Translations under genes and position numbers: made by a program
The notes under the pieces: model-generated
Databases searched by the model: none
Seen by the model: the letters and a program-made list of their open reading frames with translations, nothing else
What the model was told of the DNA's origin: nothing
Assembly: GCA_021163365.1 (NCBI GenBank)
Contig: JAGGWW010000007.1
Location: 13,929-77,928, forward strand
Reading direction: 5' to 3'
Length of the DNA stretch: 64,000 nucleotides
DNA from: Nanobdellota archaeon
GTDB taxonomy: Archaea > Nanobdellota > Nanobdellia > CSSed11-243R1
Part shown: positions 6,757 through 51,035 of the stretch, one piece after another
Position numbering within the stretch: the stretch's first letter is position 1
Layout of the letters: each line of letters begins with the position of its first letter

Positions 6757-6757
6757 A

Positions 6758-6905: not shown

Positions 6906-6917
6906 CTTTATATATTA
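6906..6917 (+). promoter_or_regulatory. Candidate TATA box (CTTTATATATTA) for a leaderless rpl21e-rpoF-DUF655 operon
   Basis: An AT-rich TATA-like element about 25 nt upstream of the ATG at 6937. No SD, consistent with a leaderless archaeal transcript. Confidence 0.35.
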
Positions 6918-6936
6918 CCCCTTTATTGAAATTTTC

Positions 6937-7227: not shown

Positions 7228-7230
7228 AGG

Positions 7231-7578
7231 GTGTTTATTATGAATGTTGATTATGAAATACTCAAAGAGGAATTTATTCCAATAGCAAAAGTAAAAGAAA
7301 TTTTAGACAAAATAAAGGACAAGAATTATGAGCAAAAACTTGCATATGAACATGCAAAAAAATTTTCAAAGCTTGATGTTAAAAAAGCAGAAGCTTTAAT
7401 TAAAGAGCTTTCAGAATTACAAATGAGGAAACTAAAAGATGACCAAATAGTTAAAATCGTTGATTTAATGCCAAAGGATGTTGAGGATTTAAAAGTTATT
7501 TTAGCAAAATCTCAAATACCATTCAAAGATGAGGAGCTTAATAAAATAATGGAAATAGTGAAAAAATATGAGAAGTGA
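7231..7578 (+). CDS. rpoF: DNA-directed RNA polymerase subunit F (Rpo4/RpoF)
   Basis: 115-aa helical protein immediately downstream of L21e, in the conserved position of rpoF in archaeal genomes. Rpb4-like K/E-rich helical profile. Confidence 0.65.
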   Translation: MFIMNVDYEILKEEFIPIAKVKEILDKIKDKNYEQKLAYEHAKKFSKLDVKKAEALIKELSELQMRKLKDDQIVKIVDLMPKDVEDLKVILAKSQIPFKDEELNKIMEIVKKYEK

Positions 7579-23230: not shown

Positions 23231-24730
23231 TCAGAACTTGACTGGTTTTGGTGGTTTTGTAATTGTGTGTGGTACAGCTTTGTATTCTGGGAAATACGGG
23301 AATGATTTGAACCTATGAGCTTTCTTAAATATGTCATATAATGTAAACAACCTATCCGCTGTTTCTTTTATTACAAGTTGTTTTACTTTTCTTTCCAACA
23401 CTTTTGATGTTGAAAACAAAGAAAGCAGTCCCTTTTTCCCACTGCTGGTTTTGCCTTTTAAAAACTTGTCAAGAATTGGTTCTCTTTTCTTTTTTTCTTC
23501 TTTTTTCTCAAGATCTTCAATTTCTTTTAAATACTTTTCTAGCTCTTCTCTCATTGCTTCAAGAGATTCTGTTGTTAAGCCCTCTATGAATTTCATTGCT
23601 TCATATTCTTCTTGTTTCTTTAAAGCATCATATTCTTCTTGCGTCATTGCATAACCTATGAATTCAATATTTAACTTACCCATTTGTCTGTAGGAGCCAC
23701 CTGTTTGGGCTTGTGCAACAACAGCTGGTTTTGTTCTATATGTAAATCTAAGTTCAATCACAGACAAAGCATAAGGACCACCTTTTTCAGCTTTCATAGC
23801 ACCCATCTCTTCTTCAGAATAAACTTTTGGTTCAACTAATGAAGGAGTCTTAGTTGGCTTCATTGTTGGTGGAGAATACTTCTTTGGCAAACCAAATGGT
23901 CTTTTAAACTCATGAAGATAATATTTTTTGGTTCCTCTTACAACAATTTCAATTACATTTTGGTCAAAAGCTTGAACAAGTTCTGGGTCTCTTATATTTG
24001 GTTCTTTAAACTGAAGCATTTGAGCTGCTTTAAGATATGGCTTTGCCCAAACAGAATATAATCTTAAAGCTTCAACTTGCGATTTAAGATATGCAAGTTC
24101 AATTTTTCTTCTTTGTTCTAATTCTTTTTCGCTTTCTTTTTCCCATTTTAAGTACTCCTCTATTCTTCCTTTTAAAATCCTTTTTACCCTATCGTTTAAA
24201 TCCATCTTGTCAACTTCTTCTGGACTATTTGCAAGCATAAATGCATCTCTAAGTGTTGTAAATTCTAATCCTCTTTGCGCAGTCATGGAGTTAATAGATG
24301 CCGCACCTTTTCTAACATCTACTTCATCCATCCATATTCTTTTCAATGTTAATCTTGCTGCTTCTCTTGTTTTTGGATTTGGGCTATGCAAGTCTTTATA
24401 AACCTCTAATCTTCTATCAAATTCCCTTAAATCATAAAGCAAATTAACAATAGATTTAACAACAGTATTTATTGTTGCAAGTATTTCCATGCCTCTTTTT
24501 TCAAGATATTGTCTTCTTGCAGACATCTCTCCAAAAAATTGTGAAACAACACTTGCAGCGATTTGCTCTTTATGTTTTTCAACTTTATATCCTAATTTTT
24601 TTAAAAAATCGATTAACCAGAAGTAATATGGCTCTAAACTAGTTGTAAAGCTATGAATCTCCATCTCATACTTATCAACGAAACACCTAACTAATATGTC
24701 GTGAATCTTCTTTTCATTATCTTTAGCCAT
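23231..24730 (-). CDS. Hypothetical protein (499 aa)
   Basis: Long ORF. Co-directional with 22589..23224 and 20908..22596, separated from them by 6 nt and an 8-nt overlap. No recognisable domain. Confidence 0.45.
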   Translation of the reverse strand: MAKDNEKKIHDILVRCFVDKYEMEIHSFTTSLEPYYFWLIDFLKKLGYKVEKHKEQIAASVVSQFFGEMSARRQYLEKRGMEILATINTVVKSIVNLLYDLREFDRRLEVYKDLHSPNPKTREAARLTLKRIWMDEVDVRKGAASINSMTAQRGLEFTTLRDAFMLANSPEEVDKMDLNDRVKRILKGRIEEYLKWEKESEKELEQRRKIELAYLKSQVEALRLYSVWAKPYLKAAQMLQFKEPNIRDPELVQAFDQNVIEIVVRGTKKYYLHEFKRPFGLPKKYSPPTMKPTKTPSLVEPKVYSEEEMGAMKAEKGGPYALSVIELRFTYRTKPAVVAQAQTGGSYRQMGKLNIEFIGYAMTQEEYDALKKQEEYEAMKFIEGLTTESLEAMREELEKYLKEIEDLEKKEEKKKREPILDKFLKGKTSSGKKGLLSLFSTSKVLERKVKQLVIKETADRLFTLYDIFKKAHRFKSFPYFPEYKAVPHTITKPPKPVKF

Positions 24731-24806: not shown

Positions 24807-25169
24807 ATGGGATTGTTTGATTTTTTGAAAAAGAAAAAAGAAGAGGACTTTGGGGAATTTGGTGGCGGGCTTGGTGGATTAGAACCAGGAATGCCAGGAG
24901 AACCCACCCCGCCAACAGCTGCACCACAACCACCACCATTATTTGGAGCACCAGAAACACCACCGCCTGGAACACCACCGCCATTAGCACCACCAATCTC
25001 ACCAACACCAGTTAGAATTGGGCCACAGCAACCACAGCAACAAGATAGAATTCAATTGTTAAAAAGCAGCATAGATGTGCTTTCATCGAAAATAGATGCA
25101 TTAAAAGCAACAATTGATAGAATAAATGAAAGGCTTGATTACATAGAACGCTATTTGCTAAGGAGATAA
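24807..25169 (+). CDS. Proline-rich protein with N-terminal amphipathic MGLFDFLKKKK and a C-terminal coiled coil (120 aa)
   Basis: MGLFDFLKKKKEEDFGEFGGG…, then a low-complexity Pro run (PTPPTAAPQPPPLFGAPETPPPGTPPPLAPP), then LLKSSIDVLSSKIDALKATIDRINERLDYIERYL. A local GC-rich island from the Pro/Gly codons. Its stop is adjacent to the start of the membrane protein downstream. Confidence 0.5.
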   Translation: MGLFDFLKKKKEEDFGEFGGGLGGLEPGMPGEPTPPTAAPQPPPLFGAPETPPPGTPPPLAPPISPTPVRIGPQQPQQQDRIQLLKSSIDVLSSKIDALKATIDRINERLDYIERYLLRR

Positions 25170-26877: not shown

Positions 26878-27429
26878 TTATTTTATGTTTGGCATTCCAT
26901 GTAAAGTATGTAAAATCAAAAAGTTGGTAATATGTTCTTGGCTGGGAAAACACAACACCAGCGCATGCATGTTGTTTATTTGGTGATATTTGTCCCCATA
27001 CATATCCTCTTTTACAAGAACAAAACGGGCATCTAAACCTGCTGCTTTTGCTAAAATAAGAAACAGCATTGTTTTATGGTAACATGTGCCATTGCCATTT
27101 GTTAGAATGTATTTAATCGCAGAACCTTTAAGTTCATCATTTGCTTTTTCATCGTAATCATACAAGAAGGTTATAGCCATGTAAATTGAAATTGCCTTTG
27201 AAAATTCATCATCCAAATCTTTTGTTATTTTCATTGCAATTTCATACAATGGCTTTGGTATGTACAATGGTGATTTTTCATTTAAAACAGCATATTCCAA
27301 TCCCTCAGAAAGCACAAATAAATCTTTATTAACATATTTTGAAAAATCATGCAAGGCTTTCAACCATCTCACCCAAACTTTTAACAAGTTGCATATTTCT
27401 ATAAACACCGCTATTTGGAAGAATTTCAT
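26878..27429 (-). CDS. Transglutaminase-like cysteine-protease-fold protein, paralogue 2 (last gene of the long operon)
   Basis: GNGTCYHKTMLFLILAKAAGLDARFV… parallels GTCYSMTRVYVALAKSVGLDARIV in the upstream gene. The annotated start overlaps the upstream gene by 83 nt, so the true start is probably internal. Confidence 0.5.
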   Translation of the reverse strand: MKFFQIAVFIEICNLLKVWVRWLKALHDFSKYVNKDLFVLSEGLEYAVLNEKSPLYIPKPLYEIAMKITKDLDDEFSKAISIYMAITFLYDYDEKANDELKGSAIKYILTNGNGTCYHKTMLFLILAKAAGLDARFVLVKEDMYGDKYHQINNMHALVLCFPSQEHITNFLILHTLHGMPNIK

Positions 27430-28159
27430 AAGAGCGCCAAAAGAAATTATATGCAGTTTTATAATCTTTTCTTCTTACACATTCTAAACCAGCTTCATTA
27501 AGAACGCGTGCTTTTTTACTTCTTAATTTTAATTCTTGTGTTGCATAACCACCAGTTAATTGAAGAGCGATCTCACAACACATATAAGCATCATCAAATT
27601 TTTTCTCTTCAATTAAGTTTTCAATTGCAGTATAGTATGGCTGAAGAATATCATATATTATCTCTTCATTTGTTTCTTTTCTTGTAAAAATCCTAACTTC
27701 TTTATGTTGTGCATCACCATCTTCATAAGCTGGGTCAAATAATAAGAATTTATCTTCATTAAACATAACACCAGCGCAAACATGCCCTGGATTAGTTATT
27801 TTTTCTCCATATTCATCAACATAAACTCTCACAATCCTTGCATCTAAGCCAACAGATTTTGCTAAAGCAACATACACTCTTGTCATAGAATAGCATGTTC
27901 CTTCCTTATGTTGAAGAGCATATAATATTGCACTTTTTCCATTTATCTCATCATTGTTATTTTTATATTTAATGTTATCAACAATCCAAGTATGTATTGC
28001 GTATGCTTTTACTCGCGAATCCTTTATTCCTTGCGTTATTTGATTTGCTAATAGAACAAGCTCTATTGGAATCTTTGGGATTGGCTCAGTGGTGTCTATC
28101 TCAATAAATCTCTTTGGGTTTGTTAGATGTATATTTCTAACTAAATCATCGAGGTGCAT
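27347..28159 (-). CDS. Transglutaminase-like cysteine-protease-fold protein, paralogue 1, with a C-terminal helical region
   Basis: Cys (EGTCYSMT), His (NPGHVCAGV) and Asp (FLLFDPAY) in the order and spacing of the transglutaminase-like core. Confidence 0.6.
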   Translation of the reverse strand: MHLDDLVRNIHLTNPKRFIEIDTTEPIPKIPIELVLLANQITQGIKDSRVKAYAIHTWIVDNIKYKNNNDEINGKSAILYALQHKEGTCYSMTRVYVALAKSVGLDARIVRVYVDEYGEKITNPGHVCAGVMFNEDKFLLFDPAYEDGDAQHKEVRIFTRKETNEEIIYDILQPYYTAIENLIEEKKFDDAYMCCEIALQLTGGYATQELKLRSKKARVLNEAGLECVRRKDYKTAYNFFWRSYEILPNSGVYRNMQLVKSLGEMVESLA

Positions 28160-28168
28160 TTAATCACC

Positions 28169-28399
28169 TCATAAATCTCTTAAAATAGCTAAGCCAGTAA
28201 TTATTGAAGTTAGTGCAACACTTGTTGTTGCAATTGCTTTATAATCAATACCATATATTGCTCCGTCTGGAATTGGCAAATAACCATAGAGATAATTCAT
28301 AACCTTTGAAGCGAATTCTGGTGAATACAACATGTATCCACCCATTCCAACTCCACCTACACCAATTCCAAGTTTCATTTTATTAAGCAAACCCATCAT
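28169..28399 (-). CDS. Small Gly-rich membrane protein (76 aa)
   Basis: GIGVGGVGMGGYML… and a C-terminal TM helix. 9 nt upstream of the transglutaminase-like gene. Confidence 0.4.
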   Translation of the reverse strand: MMGLLNKMKLGIGVGGVGMGGYMLYSPEFASKVMNYLYGYLPIPDGAIYGIDYKAIATTSVALTSIITGLAILRDL

Positions 28400-28512
28400 C
28401 CCACCTCACAAATAATTCAAAGTCAAATTTACGCGTGCAGCTATTGCATAGGGTTATGCCTTCTTTTTTCTTTGTTTCACATTCACTTTTACAAAAAACG
28501 CACTTTTCCAAA

Positions 28513-29688
28513 TTAACTCACCTGTTTCCTGTGTTCATCAATTTTATTAACTAATTCTTCTAAATCTTTGAACTCCTCAGAAACCTTGTCTTTGTGCCTT
28601 TTGTATTCATCAACCCATCTGTATAATGACGAGCGTGTGTCTTTAATTACCTCAACTAAATCAGCGTGACATAGTTTTCTACTTGGGTCTTTAATGTGTT
28701 CTTTTAAAGCCCTTCTTCCTGCTTCTGCACATATTGCTGTTATATCTGATGATGCATAGTATTGCGTCATTCTTGCTAATTCATCATAATTAATATCATT
28801 TGAAACTAACAACCCGTCAAGTGATAATTTAAACAATTCTTTTCTTGCTTCAAAATCTAATGGGTCAACTCTTATATGATAGCCAAATCTACCAGACCTT
28901 AAAAGAGCTGAGTCAATTCCCCAAACCTTGTTTGTTGTTCCAACAACTAAGACTGATTTTCCTGTTATTATATCAAATGATGATAAAAACTGATTAACTA
29001 ATCTTTGAGCATAAGATGACCTATTTCCACTTCTCGACATTCCTATTCCATCTATTTCATCAAAAACAATTATTGCTGGTTCTTTTTCTGCTGCTTCTTC
29101 AAAAACTCTTTTTAGATTCTTTTCGCTAACTCCAACGTATGAACTTAAAACACTGCTTGCATCAATGTAAAGAAATGTCACTTTCTTGCCTAATCTTTTA
29201 CTTGCTTCTCCTGCTGCAGCTTTTGCTATGTATGTTTTTCCACAGCCTGGTGGACCATACAATATTATTCCGCTTGCCATGTAATCCTTTTTTACAAACT
29301 TGAAAAACAAATCTGGATTTTCTAATGGCAATATTATTGCATTGTAGAACCTGTCTTTTACTTCTTGCATACCAGCAACTTTGTCAAATGTTAAATCTGG
29401 AATTTCTACTTCAAATGATTTTACAACATCTTCTTTATCATCTCCTTCTCTAATTGCTGTTTTCTTTGGTGCTGACAATGCTTGAGCTTTTGCTTTACAT
29501 ATTTCAATTTGATTTTGAAATGCATTTATTGCTGTTTCATCTTTGCATAACTTTGTTGCTTTCAAAAGCTCTTGAGCTGCTCTTATGTAATTAATCGCTG
29601 CTTGATTGTAATTTTTAGTAGCTTCTTGTTCTCTTGCTATTTTTACATATTCATTCGCTGCTGCAACATGAGGTGTGTATGAGTCCAA
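28513..29688 (-). CDS. MIT-domain AAA+ ATPase of the Vps4/CdvC-spastin-katanin ('meiotic') clade
   Basis: The N-terminal three-helix region (AAANEYVKIAREQEATKNYNQAAINYIRAAQELLKATKL) resembles a MIT domain. Single AAA cassette with Walker A ILYGPPGCGKTY, Walker B IIVFDEID and a second-region-of-homology/Arg-finger segment (…SALLRSGRFGYHI). Confidence 0.8.
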   Translation of the reverse strand: MDSYTPHVAAANEYVKIAREQEATKNYNQAAINYIRAAQELLKATKLCKDETAINAFQNQIEICKAKAQALSAPKKTAIREGDDKEDVVKSFEVEIPDLTFDKVAGMQEVKDRFYNAIILPLENPDLFFKFVKKDYMASGIILYGPPGCGKTYIAKAAAGEASKRLGKKVTFLYIDASSVLSSYVGVSEKNLKRVFEEAAEKEPAIIVFDEIDGIGMSRSGNRSSYAQRLVNQFLSSFDIITGKSVLVVGTTNKVWGIDSALLRSGRFGYHIRVDPLDFEARKELFKLSLDGLLVSNDINYDELARMTQYYASSDITAICAEAGRRALKEHIKDPSRKLCHADLVEVIKDTRSSLYRWVDEYKRHKDKVSEEFKDLEELVNKIDEHRKQVS

Positions 29689-30245
29689 ATGATCACCTCC
29701 TTTTTAAATCCAAGAAGCTCTTCAAGGTCTTCTTCAAGTTTATTTATTTCTAGCCGCTGTGGTGAGACTTCGTTTGAGAGATATTCTTCCATTAGTTCTT
29801 TTCCTCTATAGGGCTTTAACATGGATTCTCGCTGCGAAATAAACAGCAGATCTAAAAAAAATTCCCTTAATTCTTCAGCTGCCGTAAAACCACGCTTAAT
29901 AGTATACCTATCACTAGCAGAGTTTTCTATCGAATACCTTAATCCTTCGATTATTTTTTTAAGTGCAACCACATAAAACTCTAATGCGCATGTATTCTTT
30001 ACATACCTAGCATGTGTAGTCATCCTTTCTGCTAAGAAATCCCAATATTTCTCTGCTTCCTCTAGTTTTCCTTCGTCTGTTAGAGCCTCTGCCTTTGGCC
30101 GTATTGTGTCTATTTCTCTTCTTAATGTTCTTACTGATGTAACATAGCGTGTTAGTTTTTCTGATGCTTCTTCAAATCTCTCTTCCAGCTCTCTAATTTT
30201 TCTCCTGTACCATAACGCCATGAAAAAACCAAACATACGCACCAC
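29643..30245 (-). CDS. Coiled-coil protein, candidate ESCRT-III/Snf7-PspA-superfamily member (paralogue of 30259..30840)
   Basis: N-terminal amphipathic MVRMFGFFMALW. Shares LTDEGKLEEAEKYWDFLAERM with its neighbour. Acidic C-terminus with EEDLEELLGF. Overlaps the AAA gene start by 46 nt. Confidence 0.45.
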   Translation of the reverse strand: MVRMFGFFMALWYRRKIRELEERFEEASEKLTRYVTSVRTLRREIDTIRPKAEALTDEGKLEEAEKYWDFLAERMTTHARYVKNTCALEFYVVALKKIIEGLRYSIENSASDRYTIKRGFTAAEELREFFLDLLFISQRESMLKPYRGKELMEEYLSNEVSPQRLEINKLEEDLEELLGFKKEVIIWTHTHLMLQQRMNM

Positions 30246-30258
30246 TGTTTAACGTTGT

Positions 30259-30840
30259 TTATGCAACAGCGCCTTGTAATTGTTGAAGTTGTCTCTCTAA
30301 TTCGCTTTCTTGTGTTTGTATTTGTGATTCTCTTGCTTGTTTCTTTTTCAAATATTCTTGCATTAGTTGTTCTCCTTCTGTTGTCAATTGTGTATCTATT
30401 ATGTAATCCCTAGAATATGTATGTACTTCCTCTGCACTTTCTACATCATTCAAAACAGCCTCTATTCCATCGTCCCTTTCTCCAATCTTTGCTTTTTTCT
30501 TTTTTATCCTCTTCAAAGCACGTTTAGCAATGCGTTCTAATTTCTTTGTGTTGTATTGAGTGTCCATTAATTCATTACCAATTTTTTGTGAAGCAACCTC
30601 CCATGCTCTTCTTTTCCTCTCATATAATTCAAACTGCTTCTTTGCTTTTGCTACTTGATTCCAATACCTCTTTGCTTCATCTAATCTTCCTTCATCTGTT
30701 AATTGCTCTGCAAGTGTTCTGTTGTAATCCATGTTAGCTTTTGCTGTTCTTGCTTTTTGTTCGTACGTTTTTGCCACTGCTCTTGCGCTTTCCAAGTCAG
30801 CTGGTTTCACATAGCCAAGTAAGCTAAATAACCCCAACAT
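30259..30840 (-). CDS. Coiled-coil protein, candidate ESCRT-III/Snf7-PspA-superfamily member with a MIM1-like C-terminal helix
   Basis: N-terminal MLGLFSLLGY. A basic helical hairpin (…KRRAWEVASQKIGNE…KRALKRIKKKKAK), then an acidic tail ending SELERQLQQLQGAVA (L-x-R-x-L-x-x-L, close to MIM1 D/ExxLxxRLxxL[KR]). Conserved LTDEGRLDEAKRYW with the neighbour. Confidence 0.45.
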   Translation of the reverse strand: MLGLFSLLGYVKPADLESARAVAKTYEQKARTAKANMDYNRTLAEQLTDEGRLDEAKRYWNQVAKAKKQFELYERKRRAWEVASQKIGNELMDTQYNTKKLERIAKRALKRIKKKKAKIGERDDGIEAVLNDVESAEEVHTYSRDYIIDTQLTTEGEQLMQEYLKKKQARESQIQTQESELERQLQQLQGAVA

Positions 30841-30844
30841 CTTT

Positions 30845-31873
30845 TTACACCTCCTTTTTTATTAGATATCCCTCTCCAAGAGGGAAGAGCATGGTTTTTT
30901 CTAAGTGCCTTAAAGATTTCTTAGATAGATTTAAATCATGTGTTAAAAACCTCTTAGAAACAACATCGTTTTTTGCATTTTCTTTTATTACGTCATAAAT
31001 TGATTTAAATCTATCATCAGTAAAATAAACTTTGTAGTAACCTGCAGCTGTATCTTTTTCGTTATATATAAGTGTGTTGCTCGATAGTTCATAAATGAAT
31101 ACTGGATAACTACCAAAGTACCCATTTACAAATTCTTTCAATTCATCGCTTGCTTTTTGAACAACATAACAAGTGATTTCTTTTTTCTTTGACTTCTTAG
31201 TTATCTCATCCATTGTTGGTTCTTTATTTTTATATTCGCAAACAATTTTGAAATCTTTATGTTTGCCGATAACCTTTTTTTCTTTTTTATTATATGTAAC
31301 CTTTAATTTTCCTGTTAAAATCTCGCCTTTTGGGTATGGAACATAGTCTGGAGGAAATCTTTCTAACTTTGAATAAACTTTTAACAAATAGTGCGACTCG
31401 TCCTCACGTTCTTTTTCCTCTTTAAGAATGTAAACATCATTTAATTCAATTGATTTCTTTACCTTTTGTAATTCACGTGAAAATTCCGTTAGTAAATAAT
31501 CACCAAACAACTTTCTTGATTTTCTAATATAATCTGCGTTTGCTGTTTTTTTAACTAATGAGATTCTTTCATGAACAGCTTCTAAGAGTTCTTTTTGTTC
31601 TTTTCTTTCATCATATGTTTCTCCAATTATCAAATTATCAACATTAGACTTTAATGTAAGAACATCCATTCTAATATCTGATAAAGAGTTCCAATACTTT
31701 GTCCAATCTTCATCTTTGTTTAAATAAATCTCTTTTCTTGTTGATTCAACTAATGTTTCTAATGAATCCAAATCCTTAGCTATCTTGTTTGACAAATCTA
31801 TTATTTTCTTTTCATATCTCCACGACATAAACTTCTTGTAAACACCTTCAATTAACAATAGGGCCAAACTCAT
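30845..31873 (-). CDS. Membrane-anchored hypothetical protein (342 aa)
   Basis: Single N-terminal TM (SLALLLIEGVYKKF), then a K/E-rich soluble region. Overlaps the upstream gene by 26 nt. Confidence 0.45.
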   Translation of the reverse strand: MSLALLLIEGVYKKFMSWRYEKKIIDLSNKIAKDLDSLETLVESTRKEIYLNKDEDWTKYWNSLSDIRMDVLTLKSNVDNLIIGETYDERKEQKELLEAVHERISLVKKTANADYIRKSRKLFGDYLLTEFSRELQKVKKSIELNDVYILKEEKEREDESHYLLKVYSKLERFPPDYVPYPKGEILTGKLKVTYNKKEKKVIGKHKDFKIVCEYKNKEPTMDEITKKSKKKEITCYVVQKASDELKEFVNGYFGSYPVFIYELSSNTLIYNEKDTAAGYYKVYFTDDRFKSIYDVIKENAKNDVVSKRFLTHDLNLSKKSLRHLEKTMLFPLGEGYLIKKEV

Positions 31874-33026
31874 CTTCTACCCCCCTTAGGATTTGTTCGA
31901 AGGTTCTTCTAAAGTAAGACTTAACTTTATTTTCATCAAGACGAGGGTCAAAAGCACTTACTAAGTTGCCTAAGCCATCACCATATTTCTCAGAAAGCTC
32001 TTTAATAGCGTTCTCCCTTCCCTTAAAGATTGTATTTAGAATATCAATAAGTTCATCTCTTGTAATTCCACTTCTTGCTTTTTCAACTGCAGAGGTAAGT
32101 TGTTCTATTTTTCCTTCAATCGTATCTATTTCTTCTGCACTAACGCCTTTAATAGCATCTATCTTTTTTTCAAGCTCGTAAATAGCGCTGTAAACATCTC
32201 TTAACAACCTTTCTTCTACTTCGCTTTGATTATCAACAGCATGCTGAAGTTTGTCAAGCTCTTCTTCAATTTTATACAATCTTTCATTGTATTTTTCTTT
32301 TGCAATTGTTTGCTTTAATCTATCTATGTCTTGTTTGATTTCACTTAATCCGACGTCTAAAACCTTTGCAAGTTCTTCATTTGATTTATAAAGACTTGAT
32401 ATTTCTCCTTCTAAAACACGAACTTTTCTTTCTAAATTTCTAGGCACTTCTTGATACTCATCTAACTTATTCTCAAGTATCCGTTGAGCAGAAAAAACAG
32501 CTTCTTTTATAGAATTTTCAACATCTTCCAATTCCTTTTGTGAAACCATTGTTTTGTTTTTATAATTGAAAACAAATTGCGAATCAATTAATTTTATACC
32601 CATATTTGACATAGCGTAAGACATCTTAGTGTGTGCATGTGCTTCAAATTCATTTTTTGAATCAACTATTTCCTCCAAACTCTTTGTTTGTAAATAGTCA
32701 TCAGCTATTGCCTTTGTTTTGCTAAACATAATTCCATCTAAGCACTCTTGTGGTGTTTTGTACGATGGAAGCCTTGTTAACAACTTGTTGATGTTTTGAT
32801 ACTCAACTGTGTAAAGTGCAGTAATCTCTATCTCATAACCGTCCTTTGAATAGCTGCTAAAAACATATTTAAGTTCAGAATCCAAATCAGCGTATATCTT
32901 TGCATTTTGTGGCCCAACATATTGCTTCTTTATTTTTCCTTTTTTTCTTTTAGCAACAATTGTTCTTGGAGAAGCAAGGCGCTCCCAGGATTTAACCTCC
33001 ACCCCATTTTTAATTCCCTTTACCAT
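31848..33026 (-). CDS. SPFH/band-7-like protein with a long C-terminal coiled coil (flotillin-like architecture)
   Basis: N-terminal …GPQNAKIYADLDSELKYVFSSYSKDGYEIEITALYTVEYQNINKLL… is compatible with the SPFH core (TKDnv.v.vd.vv.yrv.d). Residues about 170-330 are heptad-rich. Confidence 0.4.
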   Translation of the reverse strand: MVKGIKNGVEVKSWERLASPRTIVAKRKKGKIKKQYVGPQNAKIYADLDSELKYVFSSYSKDGYEIEITALYTVEYQNINKLLTRLPSYKTPQECLDGIMFSKTKAIADDYLQTKSLEEIVDSKNEFEAHAHTKMSYAMSNMGIKLIDSQFVFNYKNKTMVSQKELEDVENSIKEAVFSAQRILENKLDEYQEVPRNLERKVRVLEGEISSLYKSNEELAKVLDVGLSEIKQDIDRLKQTIAKEKYNERLYKIEEELDKLQHAVDNQSEVEERLLRDVYSAIYELEKKIDAIKGVSAEEIDTIEGKIEQLTSAVEKARSGITRDELIDILNTIFKGRENAIKELSEKYGDGLGNLVSAFDPRLDENKVKSYFRRTFEQILRGVEDEFGPIVN

Positions 33027-33142
33027 TTCAGCTTACCTCCCATTAATTTTAAGAAATAGCTAATATAATCATGAATACAATTGAATACATCTTAAGAAAA
33101 ATAAAAATGTTTGAAAAAAATTTCAGAAAACAGGTCATTGAG

Positions 33143-34222
33143 CTAGTTTAAATTTGGATTTTTAACGTAAAACCCGTATTTATCTTTGTATTTTGCATAT
33201 ATAGAATAAGCTTTCCTTAAAGCTTCATTTTTTAAAGATGGGTTTTTATCAGCAAAGCTTTCTAAAGCATCTTGTATGCCTCTTAAATCTTTTAATCCTT
33301 CTTTTACAGCTTTTTTATAATACTTTATCCCTTTTCTTAAATGTGATTTGTCATTGCCTTTCAAAAGATGATATATAGATGCGACTTCATATGCAAATGC
33401 GCTGTTGATTCTGAATAAAATATTGATTAACTCTTCTGCATGAGGCTCATCAAACTTTTCAATGGTAGAAACAATGGTTTCAGTTAAACACATATTTTCT
33501 CCAACTACTTGTTTTGCTTTGTTAACGATGTAGTCTTCAAAAAAGAGGAGAGTGTTATTGTTGCAAATCCTCTTAAAAACTTCAGCAAAAGATACAAAGT
33601 CTTTTATATACTTATCATACACTTCTTGTACCAATTCTATTGCTTTATCTGAAATATACATATCAACATCATCTATCGTATCAGCAATTTCAAGAAATTT
33701 TTCACCATCCAATGTAACACCATTGTTAATGAGGGTTTTAATTGTGCGTTCTTTTATAACATCATCATCTATATCTTTAAGCACTTTAATATCTTTAGTA
33801 ATAAGAATATAACTAGCGTACATATCTGCTGCTTCTAGAGGATACCAACATGTCTTCGCGGTATATAAAAGTCCTAATGTTGTATTTGGACCCACGCTTC
33901 TTTCTAATTCCTTCTTTAAGTCAATGTTGTTCATTGCAACGTAAATGTCCATAAACAATGAAAGGTTTACGTTAACATACTTACGTAGCAAATCTATTAA
34001 TGGCTGCTTTTCATTAACAAACTCCAATTCTCTAATAAGTGCTAATAAATCTGACTTATGCAGATAGGATACTTTTCCATCTCTCAAAAGATTCTTAATC
34101 CATGCCTGTAGCAAATTCTTATAATCTTCTTCATCCAATCCAAGTTCTTCGTGCGAATATTTCCAAGGCTCCCAATTTGGATTAGATTTGTACATAGTAT
34201 CTAAAATTTCTTCCAATTCCAT
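33143..34222 (-). CDS. Unknown-family protein, tandem paralogue C (NWEPWKYS…GL…DY N-terminal motif)
   Basis: Shares an N-terminal W-x-P-W-K-x-S-x-x-x-x-G-L-x-x-x-D-Y block and a C-terminal Y.KA(V/L)K.G(L/W)..L..IQ..L..FA………AL..I..IY block with 34667..35710 and 35704..36525. Confidence 0.5.
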   Translation of the reverse strand: MELEEILDTMYKSNPNWEPWKYSHEELGLDEEDYKNLLQAWIKNLLRDGKVSYLHKSDLLALIRELEFVNEKQPLIDLLRKYVNVNLSLFMDIYVAMNNIDLKKELERSVGPNTTLGLLYTAKTCWYPLEAADMYASYILITKDIKVLKDIDDDVIKERTIKTLINNGVTLDGEKFLEIADTIDDVDMYISDKAIELVQEVYDKYIKDFVSFAEVFKRICNNNTLLFFEDYIVNKAKQVVGENMCLTETIVSTIEKFDEPHAEELINILFRINSAFAYEVASIYHLLKGNDKSHLRKGIKYYKKAVKEGLKDLRGIQDALESFADKNPSLKNEALRKAYSIYAKYKDKYGFYVKNPNLN

Positions 34223-34657
34223 TTAAACCACTGGCTTAAGACTTTTTAGATAAACCAAAGCAATCTCATAATCTCTTCCGCTTAATTCTTTTTTCGCATA
34301 TGATTTTAAACGTTCAACATCTTCTTTTCTTAAAAATGGATGAACAAATCTTTCTCTTTTTGAGTTATCCACATAGAAAATTCCTTCTTCTCCACTTAAA
34401 GTAAAAATAATCATATCTAAAGATGGTTTTTTAGATAAATAATCAACAAACCCTTTTCTATTCCCAACAACTTGCTCTGCGTTATTTATAAAATCATGCA
34501 TATCCTTAACTAATCTTTGAAAGTAATTATCAAAAACATGGCTTGCTTGTTTTTCTAAAATATTTTTCAAATTTAACTTATCACTTTCGCACATTTGCTC
34601 AACATTTAAAGGAATACCTTTCAAAAAATTTGATAAATATCTTTCAATCTCTACCAT
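34223..34657 (-). CDS. Hypothetical protein (144 aa)
   Basis: ORF. Stop abuts the start of paralogue C, and the start lies 9 nt after paralogue B. Confidence 0.45.
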   Translation of the reverse strand: MVEIERYLSNFLKGIPLNVEQMCESDKLNLKNILEKQASHVFDNYFQRLVKDMHDFINNAEQVVGNRKGFVDYLSKKPSLDMIIFTLSGEEGIFYVDNSKRERFVHPFLRKEDVERLKSYAKKELSGRDYEIALVYLKSLKPVV

Positions 34658-34666
34658 TTTACCACC

Positions 34667-35710
34667 TCAAACCTTTTTCTTTTTCATGTACTTCTCTATC
34701 TTCTTAGCTGGATTCATTGAATTAAGTAAATAAGACGCAATTCTATCAATGAAAAAGCCCAATGGGAGTGCAAAATAAGTAGTGGAAACAAATGCAAAAT
34801 CAGTGTAATCATAGTAATAATATGTCTCATGAACACCGCTACTATCCCATTCACAAGTATGCGCATATTCGCCTGAAGTAGCTGCAGCAAGTGCTAAAAG
34901 CATTGCTGATTGGATTGCTGCAATCTTAAGTGCAGTTGTTTTATTCCAAACTTCGCTGTACTCCAAATCAAAATCTTCTAAAGAAATAAGCTCTCTTGGG
35001 TTTAATGCAAATTCTGGATTCTTCTTATAAATATTAACTATGCTCCTTAATGCTAAATAAGAGTAGAACCTATTGCTTTGTTTCACATCTTCTGCAAAGT
35101 TATACAATGCCTTTTGAAGAGCTTTTAAACCATCTTTATACTTTAAAGCATTCCAATAATGTGGGAATCCTTTTATTGCCATGCGCTTTCTTTTTCCAAC
35201 CTCTTCATCAGCAGTAAGATGTGCTACTGAAAGCAATATGTGTTTTATTGGATTTTTTGATTTACTTAATAATTTCTCTAATGTCTCAACATCTTCTTTT
35301 TTCAAATCATACAATAAATCAATCTTTTCATTAAGTATAACTTCATTAAGCAAACTGTAGTCATTTGTACTATGAATTACTTCAGCTAATGTAAAGATAC
35401 CTGAGATACCTGTTGAATAAAGCATCTTTACTGATTCATAGCTATTAGCTACAATATCTTCTCTTGGGTTTAACTCTTTAGCTCTTGACATAAGCACATC
35501 AGCGAGCTCGAAAATATCTCTGCTATTTTTTAACAAACCATTATCCAAAGCTCTTTTAGCATATCTATTAAGCAAAAGCAAATAATCTCTTTTTGACAAA
35601 CCAAAGTCCTTTGGTGATTTTTTCCACGGCTTCCATTGAGAATCTTCCATATTTTCGCCAATAATTTTTTCCAAATTTGGGGGCTTGTACATTTCCATTT
35701 TTATCACCAA
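34667..35710 (-). CDS. Unknown-family protein, tandem paralogue B (QWKPWKKSPKDFGLSKRDY), with a hydrophobic C-terminal extension
   Basis: Conserved N- and C-terminal blocks as for paralogues A and C. An extra about 80-aa C-terminus with a hydrophobic segment (ALKIAAIQSAMLLALAAATSG). Confidence 0.5.
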   Translation of the reverse strand: MVIKMEMYKPPNLEKIIGENMEDSQWKPWKKSPKDFGLSKRDYLLLLNRYAKRALDNGLLKNSRDIFELADVLMSRAKELNPREDIVANSYESVKMLYSTGISGIFTLAEVIHSTNDYSLLNEVILNEKIDLLYDLKKEDVETLEKLLSKSKNPIKHILLSVAHLTADEEVGKRKRMAIKGFPHYWNALKYKDGLKALQKALYNFAEDVKQSNRFYSYLALRSIVNIYKKNPEFALNPRELISLEDFDLEYSEVWNKTTALKIAAIQSAMLLALAAATSGEYAHTCEWDSSGVHETYYYYDYTDFAFVSTTYFALPLGFFIDRIASYLLNSMNPAKKIEKYMKKKKV

Positions 35711-36525
35711 TTTTCAAGTATGTAAATAATCTTATCTTTGATTGTTTTTCTTTGGATATATCTGTCAATCAAATTTGCTAAGTTAAAGAAAAACAAACGT
35801 TTATCAAAATAATCTAATTGTATAATATCCTGTGGCTTCTTTGAGTCAAAAGGATTATTTCTGTAAATTTTAACAATCTCCTTAAGTGCAGTTATTGAAA
35901 GTAATGGATGCACTTGCTTAGCAAACTCATGCAGTTCTTCTTGAATCGCAAGAAGATTTTCCCATCCTTTTTTCACAGCTTTGTTTTTATACCAAAGTGC
36001 CTTGTCCAAGCTTAAAAGTTTGTTTGTATTAAGATGATATAGGGATATCAAAAAATAACCAAGGGCTGTTTTTTTCTTTTTTAATCTTTTTATATCCTTT
36101 TTTGAGAACTTTTTAACAATATCTTTGTTTTCCAAAACAAATTTAGTAACTGCATTGTTTTTATATTTTGACTCGCTTCCATGTGTAACCAAATAAACTA
36201 ATGCTTCTTTTTTGTCTTTACTAATCTTTAAATAATCCAGGTATAAATCCTTTGCAGTGCTATGTTCGCCTTGTGCAAGTCTTTCTGCTAAGTCAAATTG
36301 GTAATCAAAACGTTTACGCTCAAAGATGTGTAATTCTAAAATCTTCTCTGCCCAATAGCATAAAAATGAATCAAAATCATCTTTTTTAAGATTAACTTCT
36401 TCAGGTGAAACACTTAAAGGATTCCAATCACTATTATGTTTAAATAATTTATCAACGAGCTCGGGTAATTCATCTTCGTATTTGAATGCATAATCCACTT
36501 TAACCACCAAGATATTTTTCAACAA
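35704..36525 (-). CDS. Unknown-family protein, tandem paralogue A (DWNPLSVSPEEVNLKKDDF)
   Basis: Conserved blocks as above (ALWYKNKAVKKGWENLLAIQEELHEFAKQVHPLLSITALKEIVKIYRNNP). Confidence 0.5.
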   Translation of the reverse strand: MLKNILVVKVDYAFKYEDELPELVDKLFKHNSDWNPLSVSPEEVNLKKDDFDSFLCYWAEKILELHIFERKRFDYQFDLAERLAQGEHSTAKDLYLDYLKISKDKKEALVYLVTHGSESKYKNNAVTKFVLENKDIVKKFSKKDIKRLKKKKTALGYFLISLYHLNTNKLLSLDKALWYKNKAVKKGWENLLAIQEELHEFAKQVHPLLSITALKEIVKIYRNNPFDSKKPQDIIQLDYFDKRLFFFNLANLIDRYIQRKTIKDKIIYILENW

Positions 36526-38035
36526 GCAATCTATATTTATCAGGAATTAAATCCAAGACATTTTCATCTTTCTTTTTTATTAACTCATCTACTAACTCCT
36601 TCTTTTTTTCTTTTATTTCACCCATACTCACTTTTATTAAAGTAGGAAGATAATCAAATCTTATTTCATCAACAGGCGTGTATTTCGCAATATTTTCTAA
36701 TAAAATAATTCCTCCAACAAGAGTTTCTGAATCAACAACATTCTTAGCATAAAAAAGCTCATTAGCTATAACCTCTGCTGTAGCCATACTATAAATATGC
36801 TTGTAATCTTCATCTTTAACACTTTGATGTTTTCCAGATAGTTTGTGGAAATTCCTCACCAAACTATCGGAAACAAACATGCTTGCAAAATTTCTTATTT
36901 CTTCTGATGCTTCCTTCTTATAAAGCGATGCATATGTTAAATATCTGGCAGTTAAATAAACCATCTCTGGGAAGTCTTCATAGTTAAACACATCTATCAA
37001 ATCGCTAAGCTTTGATTCATTATCTAATGGTTTTTCATAGATATCTCTAACTATTTCATAAAATGTTTTACCATATTTCGAAAAAATATACCTGTGTGCT
37101 ATTGAAAGACGTTCTTCTCTTTTAGAAAGATTTAGCAAATCATTGAAAAAGCCAGTCATATCTTTGCTTAGGTTCTCAAATATTCCATCAAATTCATCAT
37201 TAGATATCCTATCTATAACATTAATCTCCTTTCTTTTATTTAAATAAGCACCTCCGAAGCTAGATATGAAATAAATAAAAGCTTCATTATCTTCAAGTGT
37301 TGCTACTAATTCATTTGTTTTTTTGAGAAAATTCAACAAGCCGTTCAATGTTGAATAACCAAAAGCACTAAAAACATTGTTATCTCTTTCAACCAATTTT
37401 ATGAATTCATTAACAGAAATCGCATGACCGCTCCCTAAGCTAAGATTTGCAGTTTTCTGAAACCCTATTGAAATAACTTTTTCAATTGTATCTTTTCTAA
37501 CCTGATTATATCCAAATGACAAAGCAGAAACCAACTTATTCTCATTTAGAACGCCTATCTTTTTCTCAAAATCATTTGTTACATCTTTGTACTTTTCTAA
37601 GAAATCATTTACAAACGTAAAACTTATATCTAAAGATGGAGTTATTTCTAAAAACTCAGACAATTCTTTTACGAACCTCGTATCTTTTTCAACTAAAGAA
37701 TAAAGTTTTTCGATTGAAGTTTCTTCTGGAACAACTGGTACAAAAGAAATATCAACATATGTAAGAAGAGAATAAAACTCTTTGTTTATAGAATCAATAG
37801 CTTTCGGCAGATAATTTTTGCATTTTTCATAAAGCACGCCATTAACAATGGTTGCAGTGCTTTTTCTTCTATCTGCATCTTCTAATTCATATATTGCTGT
37901 ATCAATAAGGTCTTCTAATTTTTTTGTTTCCATACCATATTGCTTAAAAACACTAATCAACTCTCTTAACATCTCCAATTCATCCTTTGTTTTCAGCACA
38001 TCATTTAAAAGCCCATCAAATGGCATATTTATCAC
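36500..38035 (-). CDS. Hypothetical protein (511 aa)
   Basis: Long ORF, overlapping both neighbours (20 and 26 nt). Helical, D/E/K-rich. No family recognised. Confidence 0.5.
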   Translation of the reverse strand: MINMPFDGLLNDVLKTKDELEMLRELISVFKQYGMETKKLEDLIDTAIYELEDADRRKSTATIVNGVLYEKCKNYLPKAIDSINKEFYSLLTYVDISFVPVVPEETSIEKLYSLVEKDTRFVKELSEFLEITPSLDISFTFVNDFLEKYKDVTNDFEKKIGVLNENKLVSALSFGYNQVRKDTIEKVISIGFQKTANLSLGSGHAISVNEFIKLVERDNNVFSAFGYSTLNGLLNFLKKTNELVATLEDNEAFIYFISSFGGAYLNKRKEINVIDRISNDEFDGIFENLSKDMTGFFNDLLNLSKREERLSIAHRYIFSKYGKTFYEIVRDIYEKPLDNESKLSDLIDVFNYEDFPEMVYLTARYLTYASLYKKEASEEIRNFASMFVSDSLVRNFHKLSGKHQSVKDEDYKHIYSMATAEVIANELFYAKNVVDSETLVGGIILLENIAKYTPVDEIRFDYLPTLIKVSMGEIKEKKKELVDELIKKKDENVLDLIPDKYRLLVEKYLGG

Positions 38036-49151: not shown

Positions 49152-51035
49152 ATGGCTCTTAAAAGAAAATTGACATTTGGCATATTGCTTTTTTTAACAA
49201 TAAACGCATTAATAGGAACAGGTATATTCTTTACACCAGGAATAGCAGCTTCTATTGCTGGTGTTAATTCAATTTTTTCATGGATTCTTGCTATAATTGT
49301 TTCAATTTTAATTGCACTTGTTTTTGCAGAACTTTCAAGCATATATCCAAAAGCAGGTGGTGTTTACGAATATTCAAAAAGAGCATTTGGAAATGAAGTT
49401 GGATTCTTTGTTGGTTGGATTTCTTGGGTAGTCTCAAACATAGTTATTGCAATGCTTGTTGTTGGAAGCCTTGATTATTTAAAGATATTGTTTCCGATTT
49501 CAGATACAATAAAACTTGTTTCTGCAATAAGCTTTGTTGTTTTCTTTAATTACGTAAGCTTTAGGGGGATAGAAATAAGCGGAAAAATCCTTCTTGCATT
49601 TTCCTTAATAACATTGTCTGTTCTTTGCTTAATTGGTTTTTCAGGAAGCACAGCAATTAACTTAAAAAACTTTAGTGATATAAGTTTAACGAAATCTACG
49701 GTTTTTCCAATTGTTATTGCAATGTTTTATGCAATTGAAACATTTTTTGGATGGGAGTCTATTTCTTTTCTTTCTGAAGAAACAAAGAACCCAAAGAAGA
49801 ACATACCAAAAGCATTGTTTATAGGAACTTTAGTAATTTCTGCGCTTGTCATGTTTGTAATTTTTGTCTCATTAGCATCTGTTCCAGCAAAAGAGCTTGG
49901 CTCATCTAGTTATCCATTACTGCTTGTTGCATCAAAGTTTTTCTCAGAAAAAGTTGTTAGATTAATATCAATACTTGTTGTTTTAACAATAATGGGTGGT
50001 GCTGCCTCATGGATTATAACAACACCAAGACTTATTTATGCAATGTCAAGAGATAGGGTTCTTCCAGAAAGCTTTAGCAAGGTTCATAAAAAATACAATA
50101 CTCCTTACACAGCTATAATCCTGCAAGCTTGCATAACTGTTCTTGTAATTGCTTCTGGTTCATATAAGTTTTTACTTGATGTTGCATTACCTTTAGCAAT
50201 TGTTATGTATTCAATTGTTATATTAAGTGTTGTAAAATTAAGAATAGAAAAACCAAAACTTAAGAGAACATTTAAGGTTCCTTTTGGAAAAATTTTGCCA
50301 ATTTTATTAGTTGCTTTGTTGATGGGTGCTTTAATTATTTCTTCAACCCTTCATAGCATTATATTAGGATTTATTCTTGTTTTGCTTGGAATACCCTTAT
50401 ATATTATTGCAAGCTTAGGTTATCATGAAAAGATAATAAAATATTTCTCTGACATTTTTGCAGAAATACATTATTGGGCAAACAGATTCATGATTGAAAA
50501 GGACATAGTGGAGCACATACTTAATTATTTAAGTGATGTAACAGTTGAGCGTGTTCTTGACTTAGGATGTGGTGTTGGCGTAGTAACTAACAGGATTGCA
50601 AGAGAGGTTATTCCACCAAATGGAAAAGTTTATGGTGTTGACTTCTCAAAAAGAGCATTAAGAATTGCTAAGAAAATTGCAGAATCAAGGGATATAAAAA
50701 ATGTTGAGTTTATTCATGAAAACTTTTACAATTTAAGTAAAAACAAAAAAGTGAATAAAAAGCTTAGAAAATTAGATGCTGTTGTTGGTGTCGGAGTTCT
50801 TGGATACATTGATAGACTTGAATTCATCCTTAAAGAGATTAGAAAAAGACTAAGAAAAGGTGGAAAGATTTATTTTGTTGATTATGACTATCCTGGACAT
50901 TTTCTTGACAAGCCACTTATCGAAGATAATAGAAAAATTCATGATTTATTTGAAAAATTTGGATTTAAAATAAGGGTTTGGAGACAAAAGAAATTGTTCT
51001 GGACTTATGTTCATATCTACGGGGAAAAGATTTAA
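49152..51035 (+). CDS. APC-family amino-acid/polyamine transporter fused to a C-terminal class-I SAM-dependent methyltransferase domain
   Basis: Residues 1-about 430: APC permease (…FAELSSIYPKAGGVYEYSKRAFG…, 12 TM). Residues about 450-627: VLDLGCGVGVVTNRIA (motif I), GVDFSKRAL (post-I), LDAVVGVGVL (motif II). Confidence 0.7.
   Translation: MALKRKLTFGILLFLTINALIGTGIFFTPGIAASIAGVNSIFSWILAIIVSILIALVFAELSSIYPKAGGVYEYSKRAFGNEVGFFVGWISWVVSNIVIAMLVVGSLDYLKILFPISDTIKLVSAISFVVFFNYVSFRGIEISGKILLAFSLITLSVLCLIGFSGSTAINLKNFSDISLTKSTVFPIVIAMFYAIETFFGWESISFLSEETKNPKKNIPKALFIGTLVISALVMFVIFVSLASVPAKELGSSSYPLLLVASKFFSEKVVRLISILVVLTIMGGAASWIITTPRLIYAMSRDRVLPESFSKVHKKYNTPYTAIILQACITVLVIASGSYKFLLDVALPLAIVMYSIVILSVVKLRIEKPKLKRTFKVPFGKILPILLVALLMGALIISSTLHSIILGFILVLLGIPLYIIASLGYHEKIIKYFSDIFAEIHYWANRFMIEKDIVEHILNYLSDVTVERVLDLGCGVGVVTNRIAREVIPPNGKVYGVDFSKRALRIAKKIAESRDIKNVEFIHENFYNLSKNKKVNKKLRKLDAVVGVGVLGYIDRLEFILKEIRKRLRKGGKIYFVDYDYPGHFLDKPLIEDNRKIHDLFEKFGFKIRVWRQKKLFWTYVHIYGEKI

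Follow-up and report, generated by a model that had tools for sequence, protein, structure and literature searches.

Gene organization of the operon

The DNA analyzed here, referred to as the window, is a 64-kb archaeal chromosomal segment (GC 32%) from an uncultured Nanobdellota archaeon. [quoted passage not shown] In the direction of transcription, the features are as follows.

33027..33142, minus strand: presumed operon promoter, AT-rich, containing TATA-like stretches and the ribosome-binding site GGGAGGT, from reading of the sequence
31848..33026, minus strand: gene A, first gene of the operon, SPFH/stomatin-like protein with coiled coil, 392 residues, assigned by Pfam, family profile and position
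30845..31873, minus strand: gene B, 342 residues, from a family without known function that is kept upstream of the small helical proteins in related loci
30259..30840, minus strand: gene C1, putative ESCRT-III-like subunit, 193 residues, assigned by predicted fold and gene order
29643..30236 or 29643..30245, minus strand: gene C2, paralog of C1 by BLASTP and alignment, 197 residues (ATG at 30236) or 200 residues (GTG at 30245)
28513..29688, minus strand: gene D, MIT-AAA ATPase (Vps4/CdvC-like), 391 residues, TTG start
28493..28498, minus strand: T6 run, 15–20 nucleotides (nt) past the stop of gene D, presumed archaeal oligo-T terminator, from reading of the sequence

The stretch from 33026 to 28513 reads as a single tightly packed five-gene operon with a presumed promoter and terminator. 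An AT-rich spacer of 116 nt precedes gene A, genes A and B overlap by 26 nt, and the gap from B to C1 is 4 nt. An earlier reading, made from the sequence alone, described three minus-strand open reading frames (ORFs) at 28513–30840. These are present as described, but the feature is larger, since the SPFH/stomatin-like gene A and the 342-residue gene B of the same operon had been overlooked. The gene D protein is 100% identical to MCD6547128.1, which is deposited as "AAA family ATPase [Nanoarchaeota archaeon]" from a metagenome-assembled genome (MAG). Housekeeping genes in the window include those for mevalonate kinase, DUF63, IMPDH, a GCD14-type tRNA methyltransferase, Orc1/Cdc6, KsgA, diphthamide synthase (Dph2), ABCE1, an Obg-like GTPase and a class II aminoacyl-tRNA synthetase, while tRNA and Rfam scans of the window returned no matches.

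The ATPase combines a MIT domain with a single AAA cassette

Gene D starts with TTG, directly preceded by the strong Shine-Dalgarno sequence GGAGGTGA, and its product contains a single classical-clade AAA cassette with an AAA_lid_3 (Pfam AAA, 5e-36). Two domains are delimited within the gene.

29464..29688, minus strand: MIT domain, residues 1–75, with helices 5–23, 27–47 and 51–72, from the AlphaFold2 model, profile and Pfam
28684..29406, minus strand: AAA cassette, residues 95–335, with Walker A GPPGCGKT, Walker B FDEID and pore loop SYVGVSEK, from alignment and Pfam

The AlphaFold2 model, built from an alignment of 30 homologues with a predicted local distance difference test score (pLDDT) of 90.3, shows three N-terminal helices (pLDDT 90–98), a disordered linker at residues 73–93, the AAA domain and 2–3 C-terminal helices. 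A profile of the N-terminal domains of 19 clade members was searched against the PDB. Its top match is the MIT domain of Sulfolobus Vps4/CdvC (2w2u, E 4.3e-8), and the calpain-7 MIT (1e-7), CdvC 4lcb (9e-6), the human VPS4A/B MIT domains (1e-4 to 5e-4) and MITD1 (8e-4) were also retrieved. The Pfam MIT model matches the whole ATPase below threshold (22 versus 30 bits) over model positions 3–64 of 66, whereas the isolated N-terminal domain matches with an E value of 1.6e-4, and 11 of the 19 clade members match individually (best 1.9e-6). Among NCBIfam models, CdvC ranks first with 188 bits, a score that includes the MIT region and is collinear over residues 10–365. Because the N-terminal region is a confidently predicted three-helix bundle and is recognized as MIT by both profile and Pfam, the Vps4/CdvC architecture that the sequence-only reading had assigned to this protein is supported. 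The MIT-AAA architecture is accordingly established, and its presence in a chromosome labeled Nanoarchaeota is solid.

A scan of the contigs of GTDB species representatives with the ATPase retrieved only generic bacterial AAA genes and no close relative. A metagenome contig scan with the ATPase-clade alignment, which relied on the generic motifs YGPPGCGK and FFDEID, retrieved at least 80 generic AAA loci, and no new member of the small-protein family was found among the matches listed. Slightly more distant relatives of the ATPase (e.g. P0051, P0065, P0095, P0107 and P0122) include many in which multi-repeat TPR domains replace MIT; these TPR-bearing proteins come from Altiarchaeales, Micrarchaeota and Anstonellaceae MAGs. 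This observation suggests N-terminal domain exchange inside one AAA clade, fitting the structural relationship between MIT and TPR.

Sequence features of the small paralogous proteins

C1 and C2 are paralogs, as the earlier reading had recognized from a shared LTDEG motif: BLASTP aligns their N-terminal 69 residues with an E value of 2e-9, and the two are alignable over the full length. Invariant positions comprise M.G.F at the N-terminus, LTDEG.L.EA..YW, and, toward the C-terminus, G..LM.EYL and LE..L..L. Two elements stand out.

30661..30702, minus strand: most conserved family motif LTDEGRLDEAKRYW, C1 residues 47–60, at the predicted hairpin tip, from invariant alignment columns and the model
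30271..30309, minus strand: C-terminal helix of C1, ESELERQLQQLQG, residues 178–190, with MIM1-like L-x3-L-x2-L spacing, two residues off the consensus, from the conserved pattern

In the C1 model, a loop at residues 50–52 within the first element parts two long helices, and the hhalign alignment described below pairs this motif with the hairpin-tip K-G-N of ESCRT-III.

The MIM1 consensus, D/ExxLxxRLxxL(K/R), is bound by MIT domains, and a MIM1-like C-terminal helix is otherwise typical of Asgard archaea and eukaryotes. The C1 terminus SELERQLQQLQGAVA reads as had been reported from the sequence, as do the N-termini MLGLFSLLGY of C1 and MVRMFGFFMALW of the 200-residue form of C2. The distance to MIM1 had been underestimated, however: ESELERQLQQLQ departs from the consensus at two positions, R7 and K/R12, not one. 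An extra paralog of strain L001 (ESELERALRKLK) departs at one position only. The L-x3-L-x2-L pattern at the extreme C-terminus is conserved in most family members, which carry a Φ-x3-Φ-x2-Φ helix there, and the relaxed pattern [DE]xxΦ-x3-Φ-x2-Φ occurs at the C-terminus of four members.

The N-terminal peptides had been described as amphipathic but are rather hydrophobic (for C1, mean hydrophobicity H 0.55 and hydrophobic moment muH 0.16). Their motifs across the family, MLGLF, MFGFF, MMGVF and DRLFG, resemble in sequence MWSSLFG of Snf7, MGLFG of CHMP3 and MGLFD of Vipp1. A division into a basic first and an acidic second half holds for C1 (+13/−8), but it is weak in the 197-residue protein (+3/−6) and is not conserved across the family.

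The most likely start of C2 is the ATG at 30236, giving a 197-residue protein that begins MFGFFMALW; GGTG lies 5 nt upstream, and the database gene call (P0004) has the same length. The 46-nt overlap with the ATPase gene (29643–29688) had been attributed to the start of C2 and taken as a sign of co-translation, but the part of C2 involved is its 3′ end, which covers the ATPase gene at its 5′ end. The last 22 residues of C2 form an unconserved tail, GFKKEVIIWTHTHLMLQQRMNM, which extends over the first 46 nt of the ATPase gene. Strain L001 is 99% identical, and its C2 homologue stops at ...EELLRS, 16 nt ahead of the ATPase start. Since the L001 homologue has neither, the overlap and the tail GFKKEVIIWTHTHLMLQQRMNM are strain-specific, and no inference on obligatory translational coupling follows.

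The same 99%-identical strain carries a third, chimeric-looking small paralog between C1 and C2 (L001:1900–2433 and L002:1293–1826). Its N-terminus is close to that of the 197-residue protein and its body to that of the 193-residue protein, while its C-terminus, ESELERALRKLKV, is nearer to the MIM1 consensus. This arrangement suggests that the paralogs recently recombined or were duplicated.

Predicted fold and relationship to ESCRT-III

The small-protein family is known from a handful of metagenomic contigs. Apart from near-identical proteins, word-index searches with C1 and C2 retrieved a single paralog, 53% identical, and a HMMER profile search run exhaustively over 1.8 billion representatives gave six members, adding P0125 (2e-27) and P0126 (5e-9). 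Four more were located among the neighbors of ATPase homologues: L024:4414–5082 (profile E 7e-10), L024:6580–7236, L021:6829–7389, which is marginal (E 0.009), and L023:7389–7970, a positional equivalent whose sequence match is not significant. Against Pfam, NCBIfam, PADLOC and PHROG, the small proteins and the 342-residue gene B protein gave only coiled-coil matches at noise level, and a scan of 2.9 million viral contigs with the small-protein family returned nothing. The top PDB matches of the family profile are BIR, JIP3, Rsd, FliS and HflK, all with E > 0.01. With no Pfam or PDB-profile match, the small proteins stand outside PF03357 and PF04012 by the usual sequence criterion.

In the model of C1, helices 13–49 and 53–116 are predicted to form a hairpin, followed by a low-confidence linker (117–136) and a C-terminal helix (137–192). 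The predicted architecture is that of an α1-α2/3 hairpin core of about 35 + 60 residues, followed by shorter helices. The best structural matches of the model belong to ESCRT-III and PspA: the open form of CHMP1B (rank 1, score 9.9), Snf7 (rank 2, 8.6), Shrub (rank 3, 8.3), Vipp1 (rank 5, 8.1), the Snf7 core (rank 6, 8.1), Shrub again (rank 8, 8.0), Asgard ESCRT-IIIB (rank 10, 7.9) and PspA (rank 11, 7.7), with CHMP2A, CdvB2 and IST1 lower at about 7.0. A helical hairpin resembling ESCRT-III/PspA proteins is what the model predicts for C1.

The family was also compared by hhalign with an ESCRT-III mini-profile composed of Snf7, CHMP4B, CHMP1B, CHMP3 and CHMP2A, whose sequences were checked to be essentially identical to the PDB chains. 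The local alignment pairs columns 4–86 with columns 4–86 (P 0.009, probability 4.6%), and the global alignment extends over 191 columns (P 1.9e-4, probability 22%), compared with P values of 0.25–0.42 for simple reversed controls. In the global register, four landmarks fall into place: the N-terminal M.G.F lies over M..LFG, the hairpin-tip LTDEG over (K)G(N), the K.G..D.IE.VL.D.E segment over the "DIDKVDE.MDEI" region of ESCRT-III, and the terminal ELE..L..L helix over the C-terminal MIM/α6 region. None of the 33 reversed-shift decoys (z 2.1 local, 2.8 global) and none of the 30 reversed-block shuffles (z 7–14) reached the true score. These clean decoys are reversed sequences and reversed blocks of 7 columns; an earlier set, made of forward circular shifts and 15-column blocks, had kept native ESCRT-III segments. 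We regard the match as weak, consistent support for a relationship to ESCRT-III, and not as proof.

The SPFH protein and gene B

The gene A protein contains an SPFH/stomatin-like domain at about residues 57–150, the remainder being a long coiled coil, and it has no N-terminal transmembrane segment. Pfam Band_7 (PF01145) matches with an E value of 2.2e-5 (25.0 bits versus a gathering score of 23.6), and the family profile retrieves stomatin (E 3.4e-4) and HflK (0.04) from the PDB; only two of the five family members match Pfam on their own. A homologue occupies the same position in L019, L021, L023 and L024. The gene B protein has a short hydrophobic N-terminus, MSLALLLIEGVY, followed by basic residues, a helical N-terminal half and a globular α/β C-terminal half in which a winged helix is suspected. 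It had no match in Pfam, NCBIfam, PADLOC or PHROG, and the search of its family profile against the PDB was also empty. The spacing between the N-terminus and its W.KYW motif equals that in the small proteins, a shared feature that we treat as a hint only. In hhalign comparisons with the small-protein family, neither the gene B family (P 0.11) nor the SPFH family (P 0.38) gave a significant result.

Conserved gene order and sister loci

The gene order, with SPFH-coiled coil first, then the B family, then one to three genes for small helical proteins and MIT-AAA last, is kept in L001, L019, L021, L023 and L024, whose ATPases are 44–46% identical to that of the window, except for the near-identical strain L001. 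In all five, gene B immediately precedes the small helical proteins. In L024, paralogs of the small-protein family are found on both flanks of the ATPase (4414–5082 and 6580–7236).

The sister ATPases P0021 and P0023 are 38–39% identical and clearly MIT-bearing. Proteins of about 185 residues precede the sister ATPases (L025:1247–1804, L026:1573–2142 and L027:5634–6191), and these are Snf7-like: they match the whole Pfam Snf7 model, at sub-threshold E values of 3.9e-4 and 0.018, and they align with the ESCRT-III mini-profile with 84% probability (P 7.5e-6, z 5–7 over reversed decoys). In L026, a B-family member (hmmsearch E 1.2e-5) lies upstream of the Snf7-like gene. The sister loci show that C1 and C2, with the B family on one side and the MIT-AAA ATPase on the other, hold a slot that is taken by a recognizable ESCRT-III in the nearest related system. 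Direct hhalign comparison of the window small-protein family with the sister Snf7-like family is weak (P 0.004–0.045), the C-terminal halves being aligned end to end. In L026, Snf7-like genes also lie on both flanks of the ATPase (1573–2142 and 3376–3864).

Proposed mechanism and alternative explanations

Four lines of evidence, namely the predicted fold, the hhalign comparison, the conserved gene order and the sister loci, point to ESCRT-III, and on balance we favor homology of the two small proteins to it. The accompanying family is new and unrecognized by current models, and its ESCRT-III homology is probable. The operon as a whole is probably a divergent membrane-remodeling module of ESCRT-III/Vps4 type in a DPANN (Nanoarchaeota) chromosome. 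In such a module, C1 and C2 would act as ESCRT-III-superfamily-like subunits. By analogy, their short hydrophobic N-terminus (M-x-G-Φ-F) may insert into the membrane, and the α1-α2/3 hairpins, judging from the predicted fold, would polymerize, probably as a C1/C2 heteropolymer. The L-x3-L-x2-L helix at the extreme C-terminus, with its MIM1-like spacing that falls short of the consensus, could recruit the MIT domain of the ATPase. As in the Vps4 family, the ATPase hexamer would then thread subunits by means of its YVG pore loop and thereby remodel, disassemble or recycle the polymer. Operon membership and precedents linking SPFH proteins to PspA and ESCRT suggest that the SPFH protein may serve as a membrane-domain scaffold and the gene B protein as an adaptor or nucleator. 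Candidate cellular processes are division, vesicle budding or formation, repair and remodeling at the host contact.

Several observations weigh against this interpretation. PF03357 (Snf7) and PF04012 (PspA_IM30) were matched by none of the ten family members at E ≤ 10, and the family profile searched against PDB sequences (E ≤ 10) retrieved no ESCRT-III or PspA chain. The hhalign probabilities of 4.6% (local) and 22% (global) are low, with z values of only 2–3 over the reversed decoys. Among 44 decoys with native-orientation ESCRT-III segments, 8 attained the true score in the local comparison and 4 in the global one, and the family aligned with a PspA plus Vipp1 profile no better than the reversed controls (P 0.1–0.25). 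The strict MIM1 regular expression is matched by no family member, and none has a proline-rich MIM2. On the side of the ATPase, the CDC48 model (183 bits) scores about as well as CdvC (188 bits), PAN reaches 167 bits, and the CdvC score is far under the equivalog cutoff of 650 (NF041006). The DPANN label of the host comes from the NCBI name of the MAG alone. The proposal of the sequence-only reading that the two small proteins are Snf7/ESCRT-III-like is thus upheld only indirectly: the predicted fold, gene order, sister loci and weak in-register hhalign alignment speak for it, and the direct sequence tests speak against it, with no PF03357 or PF04012 match at HMMER level and no ESCRT-III chain retrieved from the PDB.

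Convergence would account for the missing Pfam Snf7/PspA match, for the failure of the PDB profile search to retrieve ESCRT-III and for the low hhalign probabilities. In that case the small proteins would form a lineage-specific family of helical hairpins or coiled coils with no relation to ESCRT-III, and they would serve a MIT-AAA unfoldase as adaptors or as substrates. A parallel would be the arCOG08707 hairpin protein, whose gene lies upstream of cdvC in thaumarchaea, or SPFH-associated quality control like that of HflK/C-FtsH. The family is tiny and fast-evolving, the HflK coiled coil is a marginal match of its profile (E 0.39), long hairpins of helices are widespread, and non-ESCRT-III hairpin proteins beside Vps4 have been described (Makarova et al. 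2024, PMC11188069). Convergence does not readily explain, however, why four landmarks are collinear end to end with a score above all clean decoys, or why the proteins sit in the slot that detectably Snf7-like genes fill in sister loci, flanked by the shared B family on one side and a related MIT-AAA on the other. Two typical ESCRT-III landmarks, the M-G-L-F motif at the N-terminus and the helix at the C-terminus, are moreover present. We therefore consider an unrelated hairpin family a serious but rather unlikely explanation.

The SPFH gene inside the operon, the resemblance of MLGLF to MGIF of PspA and MGLF of Vipp1, and the SPFH-PspA link cited in the literature (PMC11188069, PMC7619361) would also fit an envelope-stress system of the PspA/Vipp1 type, comparable to PspA-YdjI of Bacillus subtilis, in which the ATPase is only a regulator. 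This explanation is improbable, since hhalign against PspA/Vipp1 gave no signal, Pfam PspA_IM30 was not matched, and the partner ATPase bears MIT, an ESCRT-III-binding module, while PspA systems lack a Vps4-like ATPase (PMC7619361). An operon that serves in antiviral defense, or that belongs to a mobile element or a virus, and whose AAA ATPase is IetA-like is still less probable. The ATPase does match PADLOC IetA (110 bits), NCBIfam IteA (109 bits) and a PHROG of unknown function (149 bits), and the genes upstream of the operon (33143–38035) are unknown paralogous families. The IetA scores, however, reflect generic AAA similarity and are well under those of CdvC, CDC48 and PAN; there is no IetS-like serine protease, the partner proteins have no meaningful PADLOC or PHROG match, no relative was found in the 2.9 million viral contigs, and the surroundings consist of housekeeping genes.

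Comparison with known systems

In archaeal ESCRT loci, ESCRT-III lies upstream of Vps4 and an adaptor lies upstream of ESCRT-III (Makarova et al. 2024, PMC11188069). According to the same survey, these adaptors often have helical, globular and winged-helix parts, SPFH-coiled-coil proteins are present in "Meth_adaptin" ESCRT loci, and the "derived ESCRT-III" of Halo_adaptin loci is accepted by position. The five-gene operon fits this grammar. The survey also uses a nearby ESCRT-III gene as its second criterion for Vps4; the neighbors of the window ATPase resemble ESCRT-III by fold and weak profile match, and the sister ATPases have Snf7-like neighbors. As in the Cdv and ESCRT-III-Vps4 systems of archaea (Sulfolobus CdvB-CdvC, and the euryarchaeal "Main" and Thermoplasmata loci of PMC11188069), the MIT-AAA gene lies directly downstream of small hairpin proteins, and an adaptor gene lies upstream of them. 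The MIT domain of the window ATPase is closest in sequence to that of Sulfolobus Vps4/CdvC, and CdvC is the best NCBIfam model of the ATPase. Unlike in the Cdv systems, the small proteins are not seen by Snf7 models, there is no CdvA, the ATPase scores 188 against the 650-bit CdvC threshold, and the host belongs to DPANN, which is reported to be without ESCRT-III (PMC7619361). The window proteins also differ from CdvB in lacking a winged-helix extension and a proline-rich MIM2 and in ending with a MIM1-like helix.

The operon shares with Meth_adaptin loci an SPFH protein fused to a coiled coil beside ESCRT-III-like and Vps4-like genes. In contrast to those loci, adaptin-appendage, GOLD, zinc-ribbon and ProX genes were not detected in the window locus, the SPFH protein has no zinc ribbon, and the lineage is different. 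The "derived ESCRT-III" of Halo_adaptin loci offers a parallel in that its sequence similarity to ESCRT-III/PspA is marginal and its assignment comes from position upstream of the ATPase and from fold; the Halo_adaptin ATPase, however, lacks MIT and has a VAT-N domain. With the MIM1-bearing ESCRT-III proteins of eukaryotes and Asgard archaea (CHMP1B, CHMP2A, CHMP3) and their VPS4, the window proteins share an N-terminal motif of the M-G-L-F type and a C-terminal helix with L-x3-L-x2-L spacing and an acidic residue ahead. Unlike those proteins, they miss the strict MIM1 and have no detectable family membership, and the ATPase differs from VPS4 in having neither a β-domain nor a Vta1 partner. 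Genetic linkage of an SPFH protein to a hairpin membrane protein or an AAA machine is also known from bacterial PspA/Vipp1-YdjI and HflK/C-FtsH, whereas in the window there is no PspA sequence signal and the ATPase carries MIT and no protease domain.

Neighboring genes and further observations

Downstream of the operon, beyond the T-run and 113 nt from the ATPase, lies a gene for a Gly-rich, probably membrane-embedded protein of 76 residues (28169–28399, minus strand), which is kept in L003 and not in more distant loci. Two overlapping minus-strand ORFs (26878–27429 and 27347–28159) each have a transglutaminase-core domain, and the one at 27347–28159 also has a TPR-like tail. The close contig L003 divides this region otherwise, into 171, 78 and 176 residues, which suggests frameshifts or gene decay.

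Directly upstream of the operon and on the same strand, three paralogs of 359, 347 and 273 residues and unknown function (33143–36525) share the N-terminal motif W.PW..S.E..GL...DY..LL. They are followed by a 511-residue protein and a TPR-containing protein of 634 residues. In L023 and L024, large unknown proteins with C-terminal transmembrane segments lie upstream. The system could use these upstream proteins as cargo or adaptors.

Elsewhere in the window, a plus-strand ORF of 120 residues (24807–25169) starts with MGLFDFLKKKK, a motif also present in Vipp1 (MGLFDRL) and CHMP3 (MGLFGK), and continues with a linker rich in Pro and Gly and then a coiled coil of roughly 45 residues; it belongs to no Pfam family and may be another membrane-binding coiled-coil protein. 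It is transcribed divergently from the gene of a 499-residue protein (23231–24730, minus strand) without a Pfam, NCBIfam or PDB match. A single 627-residue ORF (49152–51035, plus strand) fuses an AA_permease_2 domain (7e-59) to a C-terminal SAM-dependent methyltransferase domain. At 1134–3937 (plus strand), a MoxR-type AAA_5 ATPase of 443 residues is followed by an overlapping 494-residue ORF without a Pfam match, and the two could be a MoxR-partner pair.

Implications for DPANN archaea

ESCRT-III homologues are found in every major archaeal lineage except DPANN (PMC7619361), and DPANN archaea divide using FtsZ (PMC7617429), according to reviews. DPANN is not mentioned in the main text of the ESCRT survey by Makarova et al. 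(PMC11188069), and our literature search retrieved no paper that reports ESCRT from Woesearchaeota or Nanoarchaeota. Whether the operon is the first ESCRT-III/Vps4 machinery recognized in DPANN, built from an undescribed and extremely divergent ESCRT-III subfamily with a MIM1-like end and coupled to SPFH as scaffold and to a new family of adaptors, is in our estimate evenly balanced. If so, ESCRT would extend to all archaeal superphyla and the DPANN gap would be filled, a distribution that would support the presence of ESCRT in the last archaeal common ancestor or else horizontal transfer into DPANN. The operon would also provide a second example of an SPFH-ESCRT link and a minimal five-gene system for reconstitution. 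ESCRT-III proteins would then be able to diverge past current family models and may therefore be under-counted elsewhere. In tiny episymbionts, such a module could drive division, vesicle release or membrane remodeling at the contact with the host.

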